DNA of 64,000 nt from the NCBI RefSeq assembly GCF_058153355.1, contig NZ_CM177019.1. One strand, 5' to 3'. Made by a program: the position numbers and the translations under genes. Under the pieces are notes generated by a model. It did not search any database. It was given only the letters and a program-made list of their open reading frames with translations, and was not told the DNA's origin. Within the stretch, counting starts at the first letter, position 1; every line of letters begins with the position of its first letter. This document shows positions 18,578 through 47,319 of the stretch, one piece after another.

Positions 18578-19168
18578 TTGAAAAGTAACTTTATAGAAAA
18601 AGACGATACTGAAAAGTCAATTTGGTGTTCGCCGCAAGAAATTATGGCTGCTGATGGTATGCCTGGATCTGTTGCTGGTGTTCACTATCGAGCAAATGTT
18701 CAAGGCTGGACGAAGCGAAAAAAGGAAGGTGTCAAGGGGGGGAAAGCTGTTGAATACGATGTGATGTCTATGCCCACCAAAGAACGAGAGCAAGTTATTG
18801 CGCACTTGGGGTTATCCACACCGGATACTGGTGTTCAAGCCAATGAGAAACAGGATTCTTCGGAACTGATAAACAAATTAACCACAACCTTAATCAATAT
18901 GATTGAAGAGCTGGAACCAGATGAAGCACGCAAGGCACTGAAACTTTTAAGTAAAGGGGGGTTGTTGGCGTTAATGCCTCTTGTATTTAATGAACAGAAA
19001 CTTTACAGCTTTATAGGATTTTCACAGCAAAGTATTCAGACGTTGATGATGTTAGATGCATTACCTGAAGAAAAACGCAAAGAGATTTTGTCAAAGTATG
19101 GGATTCATGAACAGGAAAGTGTTGTAGTACCTTCACAGGAACCACAGGAGGTAAAAAAAGCCGTATAA
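18578..19168 (+). CDS. c: Mu repressor c
   Basis: ORF track 196 aa, MKSNFIEKDDTEKSIWCSPQEIMAADGMPGSVAGVHYRANVQGW... Confidence 0.95.
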   Translation: MKSNFIEKDDTEKSIWCSPQEIMAADGMPGSVAGVHYRANVQGWTKRKKEGVKGGKAVEYDVMSMPTKEREQVIAHLGLSTPDTGVQANEKQDSSELINKLTTTLINMIEELEPDEARKALKLLSKGGLLALMPLVFNEQKLYSFIGFSQQSIQTLMMLDALPEEKRKEILSKYGIHEQESVVVPSQEPQEVKKAV

Positions 19169-42980: not shown

Positions 42981-43089
42981 TAAAAAACGCCCCAGTCATT
43001 ACTGACTGGGGCGGCTAAAATATTCAGCCAAATCCGATTACGTGAAGTAAAAGGTCTGAAAGATAGAACATCTTACCTCTGTACCCTAC
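42981..43089 (-). ncRNA. spf: Spot 42 sRNA
   Basis: Minus strand reads GTAGGGTACAGAGGTAAGATGTTCTATCTTTCAGACC...GCCCCAGTCAGTAATGACTGGGGCGTTTTTTA, the canonical 109-nt Spot 42 with its terminator. Confidence 0.95.
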
Positions 43090-43236
43090 GCGACTAACTT
43101 TACTCTTTTTTGTTCAGTTCAGAAAGCATTTTTTGTAATTTTTTTTCAGTTGTTGCATAGGAATTTCTAATAGCCATCACAAAACGTGACAGCTTATGTT
43201 GCTTACTTACGAAAAAAGGGCATGTTCAGGCGAATC

Positions 43237-46023
43237 TTAGTGCGCCTGATCCCAGTTTTCGCCACTCCCCACTTCCACCAGCAACGGCACATCCAGACGG
43301 GTACAGTTTTCCATCAGTTGATGAATCTGTTTCGCGACGGCATCGACATCATCTTTATGAACTTCAAATACCAGTTCATCGTGTACCTGCATAATCATAC
43401 GCACACGCGGTTGCTCAGCTTGTAACCACGCATCAACGGCAATCATCGCTCGTTTGATAATGTCGGCGGCGGTTCCCTGCATTGGCGCGTTAATGGCTGC
43501 ACGTTCAGCCGCTGCACGACGAGCACCATTGCTGGATTTGATATCCGGCAGATACAGACGGCGTCCGTCCAGCGTTTCAACGTAGCCCTGTTCTTTCGCC
43601 TGCGCACGGGTGCGCTCCATATACTCCAGCACGCCTGGGTAGCGTTCGAAGTAAAGGTCCATGTACTTCTGCGCTTCTTTACGTGGAATGTTCAATTGTC
43701 GCGCCAGACCGAAAGCACTCATGCCATAAATCAGACCAAAGTTGATCGCTTTCGCGCTACGACGTTGCTCGCTGGTGACGGTTTCCAGTGGCAAACCAAA
43801 CACTTCTGCCGCCGTAGCCCGGTGGATATCTTTTCCTTCCGCGAATGCGGTCAGCAAGCCTTTGTCACGCGAGAGATGCGCCATAATGCGCAGTTCAATC
43901 TGCGAGTAGTCCGCCGAGACAATCACATAATCCTCTGGCGCAATAAACGCCTGGCGGATACGACGACCTTCTTCGTTACGCACCGGAATGTTTTGCAGGT
44001 TAGGATCGGTTGACGATAAACGTCCCGTTGCGGTTACTGCCTGGTGATAAGAGGTATGTACACGCCCGGTTTTCGGGTTGATCATCAGCGGCAGCTTGTC
44101 GGTGTAGGTCGATTTCAGCTTCGCCAGACCACGATACTCCAGAATCACTTTTGGCAACGGATAGTCCAGCGCCAGTTCTTCCAGTACCTCTTCCGACGTT
44201 GACGGCGCACCACCCGGCGTTTTCTTCAGCGGTTTAATGCCCTGTTTTTCAAACAGAATGGTTTGTAACTGCTTGGTGGAAGAAAGGTTAAATTCTTCAC
44301 CTGCAATTTCATGCGCTTTCTTTTCCAGCTCAGCCAGACGTAGAGTGAGCTCTTCAGAATGATTATGAAGCACTTTCGGATCGATCTTCACACCGTTACG
44401 TTCAATGCGTGAAAGCACCGGCACCAGCGGCATTTCGATGTTCTCGAAGACGTTCAACGGCCCTTTGTGTTTTTGCAGATCCGGCCACATTTTCAGATGC
44501 AGCTGCAAGGTGACATCGGCATCTTCGGCTGCGTAACGTCCGGCCTCTTCGAGGGCAATCTGGTTAAAGGTCAGTTGATTTTTGCCTTTACCGGCAATCT
44601 CTTCAAAAGTGATGGTTTTGTGCTTCAACCAACGTTCCGCGAGGCTGTCCATATCGTGACGCCCGGCAACGCTATTGAGAATGTAGGATTCAAGCATGGT
44701 ATCAAACGCAATCCCACGCAGCTCAATGCCGTAATTCGCCAGAATACCGCGATCGTATTTTAGGTTTTGCCCAACCTTCAGCGCCTTTTCATCTTCCAGC
44801 AGCGGTTTTAGCAACTCGAGTGCACGCCCGCGAGAGATTTGATCGGGCGCATCAAGATAATCATGAGCAACCGGAATATATGCCGCTACGCCTGGCTCGA
44901 TAGCAAAAGAAAGCCCGACCAGGTTGGCAGAGATGTTATCGAGGCTGTCGGTTTCGGTATCAAATGCAAATACCGGCGCTTTTTCCAGCTTCGCAATCCA
45001 CGCTTTCAGTATTTCTTCATCAAGGATGGTGACGTAGTTGTCATAAGAAATCACCGTTGCCGTCACTTCTGGCGCTTCGTCTGCAACACTGGTTTCCTGC
45101 GGCTTCGCGGCTGGTTTTTCCCCTTTAGCCTGTAACCATTTGCCCGCTTCGACATCAGCAGTCCAGCGTTTGAACTCATACTTTTTGAACAGCCCCAACA
45201 ACTCTTCCGCCGCCGGTTGCTGCACTTCCAGTTGTTCACAGGTCAGCTCCAGTTCAACGTCGGTTTTAATCGTCGCCAGCTGGTAAGAGAGATAAGCCAC
45301 TTCTTTGTTTTGCTCGAGCTTCGCTGCCATTGTTTTCGCGCCACGGAAGCTCAACCCAGCAATTTTTTCTGGCTCGGCATACAGCGTATCCAGTCCGCCA
45401 AGACCTTGCAGCAATGCCTGCGCGGTTTTTTCACCAACGCCCGGTACGCCAGGGATGTTATCGGAGGAGTCACCCATCAGCGCCAGGAAATCGATGATCA
45501 GTTCTGGCGGCACGCCGTACTTATTCACCACCTCTTCCGGTCCGAGGATGGTATTCGTCATGGTATTGATAAGCGTAATATTTGGCGTCACCAGCTGCGC
45601 CATATCTTTATCGCCAGTGCTGATCAGCACCGGACGCCCGGCTTTTTCGGCTTCGCGCGCCAGAGTACCGATAACGTCGTCCGCTTCTACGCCAGAAACC
45701 GCCAGCAGCGGCAGTCCCATCGCTTTGACCATCGCGTGCAGAGGTTCGATTTGTGCTCGCAGATCGTCCGGCATTGGCGGGCGATGTGATTTGTAATGTT
45801 CAAACAGTTCATCACGAAAGGTTTTTCCCTTGGCGTCAAAGACCACCGCTGCATGCGTCGGTTTATATTGCATGATTAGACTGCGCAGCATGTTGAGGAC
45901 ACCATACATCGCACCGGTCGGCTCGCCTGCGCTGTTAGTCAGCGGGGGAAACGCGTGATATGCGCGATAAAGATAAGATGAACCATCTACAAGGATAAGT
46001 GGATTTTGGGGGATCTGAACCAT
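43237..46023 (-). CDS. polA: DNA polymerase I
   Basis: ORF track 928 aa, [45 protein letters not shown]... Confidence 0.97.
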
Positions 46024-46145
46024 AATGTCCGTGCCTGTTTATCAGATTATGGGTAAAGGATGCCACAGACAGGATGAAAACATGAGTTTTTCACCGCTTT
46101 TCGTGAAAATCTTTTGTAGATCTTCTGGATCGCTCGCAAATCGTC

Positions 46146-46296
46146 ATGTGGATAACTTTGTGCATAAATTATTTACATCACTTTTAATTTATTATCATGC
46201 TTTTTACAGCATGATGTTTGTCTTTGCTTTTCATACAGTTAAATATAAAGCCATCCCTAATAATTGTGATAATGGGATTTTTTCTAATGTGGATAG
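46146..46296. promoter_or_regulatory. polA promoter region with DnaA boxes
   Basis: TGTGGATAA at 46146..46154 and TGTGGATAG at 46288..46296, reverse complements of the TTATCCACA consensus. Confidence 0.6.
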
Positions 46297-46386
46297 ATAT
46301 GAATTATTTTTCTCCTTAAGGATCATCCGTTATTTGGGGCGTTTTCTGCTAAAATCGGCGCCTTGCGCTTCTTTAGCGCACTGTCT

Positions 46387-47319
46387 ATGGCTAACCTTTT
46401 GAATAAATTCATTATGACGAGAATACTCGCTGCGATAACCCTTTTGCTGAGTATCGTATTGACCATTTTGGTCACTATTTTTTGCTCCGTCCCGATCATC
46501 ATTGCCGGGATTGTAAAACTATTGCTACCTGTGCCAGTCATTTGGCGAAAGGTTTCGCGTTTTTGTGATTTTATGATGTATTGCTGGTGTGAAAGTCTGG
46601 CGGTATTACTGCATCTGAACCCACACCTGCAATGGGAAGTTCACGGGCTGGAAGGGTTAAGTAAGAAGAACTGGTATCTGCTTATTTGTAACCACCGTAG
46701 TTGGGCAGATATTGTCGTACTGTGCGTGCTGTTTCGTAAGCACATTCCGATGAATAAATATTTCCTCAAGCAGCAGCTTGCCTGGGTGCCATTTCTTGGC
46801 CTGGCATGCTGGGCGCTGGATATGCCGTTTATGAAGCGTTATTCCCGCGCTTATTTATTACGTCATCCGGAACGACGTGGTAAAGATGTTGAAACCACCC
46901 GGCGTTCTTGTGAAAAGTTTCGCCTGCACCCCACCACCATTGTCAATTTCGTTGAAGGCTCCCGTTTCACGCAAGAAAAACATCAGCAAACCCACTCCAC
47001 TTTTCAAAACTTGTTGCCACCAAAGGCGGCAGGCATTGCGATGGCGCTAAATGTACTGGGTAAACAATTCGATAAACTGCTTAATGTTACGCTGTGTTAT
47101 CCGGACAATAACCGTCAGCCGTTCTTCGATATGTTAAGCGGTAAACTGACGCGAATTGTCGTACATGTGGATTTGCAGCCTATTTCCGATGAGTTACATG
47201 GCGACTACATCAATGACAAAAGCTTTAAGCGCCATTTTCAGCAATGGCTGAACTCACTGTGGCAGGAAAAAGACCGGCTTCTGACGTCGTTGATGTCATC
47301 ACAGCGGCAGGACAAGTAA
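46387..47319 (+). CDS. yihG: Acyltransferase-family inner-membrane protein YihG
   Basis: Track ORF 46363..47319; [22 protein letters not shown]...; start chosen by recall of the roughly 310-aa K-12 protein. Confidence 0.8.

Follow-up and report, generated by a model that had tools for sequence, protein, structure and literature searches.

The polA–yihG intergenic region

The window, a stretch of 64,000 nucleotides from contig NZ_CM177019.1 (NCBI RefSeq assembly GCF_058153355.1), carries the genes polA and yihG on either side of a 363-bp spacer (46024..46386; Table 1). The spacer has a GC content of 36% against 50% for the window; the sequence-only reading had called it an AT-rich region upstream of polA. 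A segment of 601 bases around the spacer matches annotated E. coli chromosomes at 100% identity and occurs in 5,425 of the 5,426 complete E. coli genomes. K-12 has the same polA/yihG arrangement in the opposite orientation. The few spacer differences between the window and K-12 leave the promoter and the three DnaA boxes described below (A, B and C) unchanged.

Both promoters of the spacer have been mapped. The genome-wide transcription start site (TSS) map of Mendoza-Vargas et al. (2009) places the polA start at -27 from the ATG, with a -10 element given as 'ctgtGGCATCCTttac' (GGCATCCT). This start is one base away from the previously known polAp and is marked 'Known ... polAp -1' in the supplement (PMC2760140). 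The same supplement gives a yihG start at -24 from the ATG with the -10 element 'ttctGCTAAAATctgc' / 'GCTAAAAT' (PMC2760140). Therefore the two promoters are divergent, with the DnaA boxes upstream of polAp. The identical annotated chromosomes and the published starts of both genes bear out the earlier description of the spacer as a polA–yihG divergent promoter region. polAp itself is a weak extended -10 promoter (TGnCATCCT) with no recognisable -35 element. Its CATCCT hexamer occupies 46057..46062, and T-15 and G-14 are at 46065 and 46064, respectively.

Two other promoter assignments were rejected. A generic promoter scan returned a single weak -35/-10 pair on the minus strand (46270..46242). 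Such pairs are rarer in the spacer than in shuffled sequences and this one does not match the mapped TSS, so it was disregarded. A sigma-54 or sigma-32 reading of TGGCATCCT/CCCATAAT was dismissed on inspection, as the GG/GC spacing is wrong. In addition, the CCCATAAT part is not conserved beyond Enterobacteriaceae, and the element has been published as a sigma-70 -10.

An Rfam scan of the spacer found no RNA family. The Spot 42 sRNA gene (spf) is located directly downstream of polA at 42981..43099 on the minus strand (RF00021, 122.8 bits), as it is in K-12. A mechanical ORF of 125 amino acids on the plus strand (46025..46402) covers the whole spacer. It is very unlikely to be a gene, because the spacer is unconserved and carries indels between genera. 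A terminator-like sequence on the plus strand, made of a 9-bp inverted repeat with a T-rich run behind it, lies between boxes C and B (46193..46216); it is degraded in E. albertii and missing from other genera.

Table 1 Features of the polA–yihG region (window coordinates; TSS, transcription start site)
Feature	Position	Strand	Location relative to landmarks	Description or basis
polA CDS	43237..46023	-		DNA polymerase I, 928 aa; ORF and annotation of 100%-identical E. coli records and K-12
polAp TSS	46050	-	27 nt 5' of ATG	PMC2760140, mapped onto the window
polAp extended -10	46057..46067	-		TGTGgCATCCT; published -10 and conservation
GATC (Dam) pair	46119..46122 and 46128..46131		24 and 33 bp downstream of box A	9 bp apart
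DnaA box A	46147..46155	-	-97..-105 from polA TSS	TTATCCACA (TGTGGATAA on plus strand); exact consensus
DnaA box B	46159..46167	-	-109..-117 from polA TSS	TTATGCACA; 1 mismatch, fits TTWTNCACA
IHF-like site	46229..46241	+	-179..-191 from polA TSS, mid-spacer	TTTCATACAGTTA; 2 mismatches to WATCAANNNNTTR
DnaA box C	46288..46296	-	-238..-246 from polA TSS	CTATCCACA (TGTGGATAG on plus strand); 1 mismatch, at position 1
yihG -10	46350..46355	+		TAAAAT; PMC2760140
yihG TSS	46363	+	24 nt 5' of ATG	PMC2760140
yihG CDS	46387..47319	+		acyltransferase; annotation of identical E. coli records and K-12, translation

Three DnaA boxes on the polA strand

All three DnaA boxes are oriented with polA. Two near-consensus boxes had been claimed in this region, and a motif scan recovered both together with a third, box B, that was absent from the claim. 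Box C lies exactly where it had been placed. Box A had been put one base off, at 46146..46154, and is an exact match rather than a near-consensus one. The comparison with the published promoter mapping sets the boxes upstream of polAp, at -97..-117 and -238..-246, in agreement with the earlier proposal.

Box B precedes box A on the same strand with a gap of 3 bp, in the arrangement TTATGCACA-aag-TTATCCACA (46147..46167). The B+A pair is a double DnaA box as defined in PMC11317965, namely two boxes in the same orientation 2 or 3 bp apart. Nowhere else in the 64-kb window do two boxes form such a pair with one total mismatch or none. Box C, upstream of box A by 141 bp, is at about -71 relative to the yihG TSS. 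We compared the spacer with 20,000 dinucleotide-preserving shuffles. Three sites with at most one mismatch were observed, compared with a mean of 0.11 in the shuffles. The probability of three or more such sites is 5e-5, and three on one strand occurred in at most 1 of the 20,000 shuffles.

A further box-like sequence, TTATTTACA, is found at 46169..46177 on the plus strand. It has two mismatches and the opposite orientation, and it stands head-to-head with box B at a distance of 1 bp. This arrangement recalls DARS box I/II; elsewhere only an A-rich tract is conserved at this place.

The whole window contains 31 9-mers within one mismatch of TTATCCACA, compared with 12.7 +/- 3.3 in shuffles. 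A second exact box is located at 18812..18820 on the plus strand, and 18878..18886 on the same strand was flagged alongside. By collinearity, the exact box at 18812 would fall in or near yihV, at about 4.074 Mb of K-12. An origin-proximal zone of high DnaA-box density has been described (PMC12371093), and the excess of boxes in the window fits this zone.

DnaA binding and reported regulation of polA

Binding of DnaA to this locus is on record. A 2024 ChIP-seq study of K-12 reported 16 DnaA-bound regions, among them 'polA' at 4046831 with a 123-fold coverage over the control. The double DnaA box listed for this peak in Table 1 of the study is tTTATGCACAaagTTATCCACAt (PMC11317965). We found tTTATGCACAaagTTATCCACAt at 4046822..4046842 of K-12 NC_000913.3, with its centre at 4046832, and the window carries the identical sequence. 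The coverage reported for other promoters is 124 for purH, 25 for mioC, 14 for nrdA and 5 for dnaA (PMC11317965). At polA, the ChIP-seq data are evidence of binding and not of regulation, and they do not separate box C from boxes A and B.

The footnote to Table 1 of PMC11317965 names NC_000913.2 as the reference. It is in NC_000913.3, however, that the polA double box matches its tabulated position, and the datA box pair of that version is a few bp at most from the tabulated datA peak. The coordinates of that table therefore appear to be those of version 3.

For regulation, the source that PMC11317965 and a 2021 review give for the stimulation of polA transcription by DnaA is Quinones et al. 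(1997, Mol Microbiol 23:1193, PMID 9106210). A 2025 study places polA in the positively regulated DnaA regulon. In the 2025 proteomics, deletion of datA, DARS1 and DARS2 altered the DnaA-ATP levels and DnaA binding, while most of the DnaA regulon stayed at wild-type protein levels. Three proteins were named as changed in these three-locus deletions, and PolA was not among them. Therefore the regulatory effect of DnaA on PolA may be small or condition-specific. The authors of the 2025 study suggested that promoter boxes may also titrate DnaA.

The earlier suggestion that the boxes are consistent with reported DnaA-dependent regulation of polA is thus supported by the K-12 ChIP-seq peak, the TSS map and the cited stimulation by DnaA. 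We consider it very probable that this stretch is the known DnaA-regulated polA promoter region, the core finding being already published and nothing in it being new for E. coli.

Conservation of the boxes across Gammaproteobacteria

We sampled 80 loci whose PolA N-termini are close relatives of the E. coli one (of at least 595 detected), taken from contigs of one genome per species. An exact TTATCCACA is present 92-185 bp upstream of the polA start at 36 of the 80 loci. These belong to Enterobacterales, Vibrionales, Alteromonadales and one unclassified gammaproteobacterial genome. A second, weaker box 3 bp upstream of box A accompanies it at 34 of the 36 (at most three total mismatches). The remaining 44 loci, from Pasteurellaceae, Pseudomonas, Halomonas, Cellvibrionales and others, have no such box arrangement.

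Box C was followed in 30 genus-level representatives through its core, TCCACA. In 29 of them the core precedes box A by 129-148 bp on the same strand, compared with 0.13 genomes of 30 predicted by shuffling. The C-to-A offset is 141-143 bp in 19 of the 30 representatives, including all 16 from Enterobacterales and Vibrionales. No further TCCACA occurs on the same strand between -330 and -20 in the 30 representatives. An unanchored MAFFT alignment was made for 24 genera and has a mean column identity of 37%. Invariant in it are TCCACA in box C, ACA in box B, box A over its whole length of nine bases, GCAT..T in the -10 element and a single base of the start codon. The spacer from C to B retains no conserved sequence, and its length is kept. 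Since the distal box C is conserved, the sequence-only reading was justified in flagging it; the DnaA-bound double box, however, is made up of A and the overlooked B, and not of A and C.

These comparisons bear on two alternatives. The boxes might be chance matches in AT-rich intergenic DNA, which yields many partial matches to an AT-rich consensus; even among the exact boxes of K-12, only 13 of 32 are DnaA-bound (PMC11317965). There is practically no room for chance at polA, however, where three sites occur together at a shuffle P of 5e-5, the ChIP peak is centred on the B+A pair, and the box columns are invariant across three orders in a spacer that is otherwise unalignable. The shuffles, the ChIP peak, the invariant columns and the conservation of box C in 29 of 30 representatives refute the chance reading.

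The second alternative concerns box C, which might serve the divergent yihG promoter, with DnaA repressing or activating yihG, and be unrelated to polA. In E. coli its centre is about 71 bp upstream of the yihG TSS, a plausible position for an activator, but yihG is the divergent neighbour at only 8 of the 80 loci, all in Enterobacteriaceae. At other loci, where the neighbours were identified from ORF N-terminal sequences only, box C stays in place with respect to box A beside dsbA-like, yihF-like or unrelated ORFs on either strand. Because the neighbouring gene varies and the position of box C stays, box C is tied to polA and not to yihG. This neighbour-independent conservation refutes a role at yihG as the reason why box C is conserved, and we regard the alternative as highly improbable.

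The promoter follows the boxes as well. The motif TGGCAT(C/G/T)CT is present in 34 of 37 box-carrying sequences (the 36 loci and the window) and at 0 of the 44 loci without boxes. The promoter and the boxes are inherited as one unit.

A central IHF-type site and nearby GATC sites

In many other Enterobacterales and in some Vibrionales, a sequence with no or one mismatch to WATCAANNNNTTR is located at -86..-88 from box A, on the opposite strand. Over 16 genera, the mean number of IHF mismatches at this fixed offset is 1.38, compared with a median of 4.25 over all spacer offsets. Alteromonadales show a weaker IHF signal at -76 on the other strand (2.15 vs 4.6 mismatches). The layout of the module is box C, about 55 bp, the IHF-type site, about 75 bp, and the double box B+A. 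The E. coli site at 46229..46241 would be the counterpart, and its binding by IHF is put forward as a hypothesis from the motif and its position. We found no report of IHF occupancy at polA in the accessible literature.

GATC sites recur near the boxes. The E. coli pair lies at -69..-81 from the polA TSS, and its offsets of +24/25 and +33/34 from box A recur in several genera of Enterobacteriaceae. In Vibrionales and Photorhabdus one or more GATC sites instead come right after box C, as a pair 11 bp apart in four of the Vibrionales genera. Over all modules, 73 GATC sites were observed compared with 32 expected, an excess of about 2.25-fold. Judged from this recurrence, the GATC pairs may confer control by Dam and SeqA. 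The AGATCT at 46118..46123, which includes the first GATC, was considered as a conserved ATP-DnaA box and rejected, as only the GATC core recurs.

Distance to the promoter and a proposed mechanism

The distance from box A to TGGCAT falls into classes of about 48, 52, 59, 71, 82, 90 and 137 bp. Providencia illustrates how the unit and the promoter can move apart: the C-to-A distance stays at 142 bp, and box A is 137 bp from the promoter, 47 bp farther. Over all loci, which are phylogenetically related, the box-A-to-promoter distance shows a helical periodicity with R = 0.70 at 10.6 bp. The corresponding p value is about 0.006 on distinct values and about 0.11 on the seven classes. With only seven classes and related genomes, the steps of about 10.6-11 bp are suggestive only. 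If the phasing is real, the centre of box A would lie near -59, -70, -82, -93 or -102. Class I activators work from such positions, as in CRP-type activation.

A possible sequence of events at the E. coli promoter can be proposed. DnaA binds the double box B+A (46147..46167), whose centre is at about -107 from the polAp TSS, and according to the published report this binding stimulates transcription from polAp. DnaA might act here as an upstream activator of the class I type on one face of the helix. Box C, the central IHF-type bend site and B+A would form a unit of fixed length, with C about 142 bp from A. A third DnaA molecule, on box C, could join the complex across the DNA bend and stabilise its occupancy, as at datA and in the left half of oriC. 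The nearby GATC pairs may make the unit sensitive to Dam methylation and SeqA after passage of the replication fork. For an activator that acts directly, a site with its centre at -107 is remote from the promoter, which counts against this explanation; the mechanism of far-upstream activation by DnaA has been called poorly understood (PMC11317965).

A different reading of the same unit is that C, the IHF-like site and B+A act mainly on DnaA itself, as a high-affinity, origin-near titration site or as a datA/DARS-like element that changes the nucleotide state, regulation of polA being secondary or incidental. Several observations would suit such a role. The ChIP coverage at polA is similar to that at purH and well above the values for the classical regulated promoters nrdA, mioC and dnaA. 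The layout is datA-like in its common orientation, its 3-bp pair, its central IHF-type site on the opposite strand and its span of 140-160 bp, and the internal spacing is kept while the promoter distance varies over 47-137 bp. Box-like 9-mers are also in excess in the window (31 against 12.7 expected). Moreover, most of the regulon is at wild-type level when DnaA-ATP is perturbed and titration by promoter boxes was suggested by the authors of that work, so this reading keeps some weight. It is nevertheless unlikely, in our view. The unit goes with one and the same unusual -10 element, always on its upstream side at 47-137 bp and in a single orientation, and it is found at 0 of the 44 loci where the promoter is absent, which points to a promoter-linked role. 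The distance classes, in addition, look helically phased. The order of the boxes is reversed relative to datA, which has its single box on the 3' side of the pair, against the 5' side here; the opposite-orientation box of the DARS cores has no conserved equivalent; and the literature searched reports neither DDAH nor ADP-release activity for the polA locus.

Returning to regulation of polA as the preferred reading, we can carry it one step further, tentatively and with less than even confidence. The promoter of polA may hold an ancient DnaA-IHF module of the datA/oriC kind that predates the split of Enterobacterales, Vibrionales and Alteromonadales. A looped DnaA oligomer on this module would tie the expression of polA to the replication cycle, possibly together with DnaA availability or nucleotide state.

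We believe that the comparative result is of moderate interest for the DnaA field. polA is among the loci most strongly bound by DnaA outside oriC, datA and DARS2, and it has a three-box layout with fixed spacing and a central IHF-type site. This architecture is conserved in three gammaproteobacterial orders, whatever the neighbouring gene. The unit offers a simple, testable model for far-upstream activation by DnaA and raises the question of whether promoter-linked DnaA sites act as datA-like complexes. No description of a three-box unit with an IHF-type site was found in the accessible literature. The fixed-spacing unit, co-inherited with the extended -10 element, is possibly unreported; it would add modestly to what is known, without amounting to a new type of system.

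Comparison with known DnaA elements

The closest known system is the published DnaA site of E. coli polAp, which is the same locus with the identical tTTATGCACAaagTTATCCACAt, the same published TSS and the same -10 element. The box C, the IHF-like site, the 142-bp spacing and the conservation across orders go unmentioned in the accessible literature on it, which excludes Quinones et al. (1997).

Other promoters with double boxes, namely those of purH, nrdA, nrdD and mioC, likewise have two boxes in the same orientation 2-3 bp apart and a strong DnaA ChIP signal. As at polA, the gene downstream of each of these double boxes belongs to DNA or nucleotide metabolism. At purH (K-12 4207742..4207885), a same-strand candidate with two mismatches, TGATTCACA, is located about 135 bp upstream and is a loose echo of box C. 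No match to the IHF consensus with at most one mismatch lies between the purH double box and the distal candidate.

DARS1 and DARS2 resemble the polA unit in having a three-box DnaA cluster that includes a double box, and DARS2 also uses IHF. DARS cores need a box I in the opposite orientation (review). The polA boxes, by contrast, all have one orientation, and the only inverted 9-mer, TTATTTACA, departs from the consensus at two positions and finds no conserved counterpart in other genera. Membership in the DARS group was therefore rejected for lack of a conserved inverted box.

The likeness to datA goes further. As we read the K-12 sequence, datA begins with box 7 - gag - box 2 (4392732..4392752), continues with an IHF site (4392809..4392821, opposite strand) and has box 3 at 4392906; its boxes share one orientation and span 162 bp. 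These elements are essential and their spacing is optimised (review). The weak box and the consensus box separated by 3 bp in datA correspond to box B - aag - box A at polA. In both cases the boxes share an orientation, a single extra box is 140-160 bp away, and the IHF site, or at polA the IHF-like sequence, is about midway on the opposite strand. The order, however, differs: datA runs pair, IHF-binding site, single box over 162 bp, whereas polA runs single box, IHF-like site, pair over 141 bp. Furthermore, datA follows a tRNA operon and does not form part of a promoter, and the IHF match of E. coli polA is degenerate.

The left half of oriC (R1, the IHF site, R5M and low-affinity sites) also has an IHF-type site between boxes and a strict spacing. 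The distance between boxes is much longer at polA, where the unit is upstream of a promoter. On these comparisons we would file the polA unit neither as datA nor as DARS; at most it may be like the bent DnaA complex of datA or of the left half of oriC.
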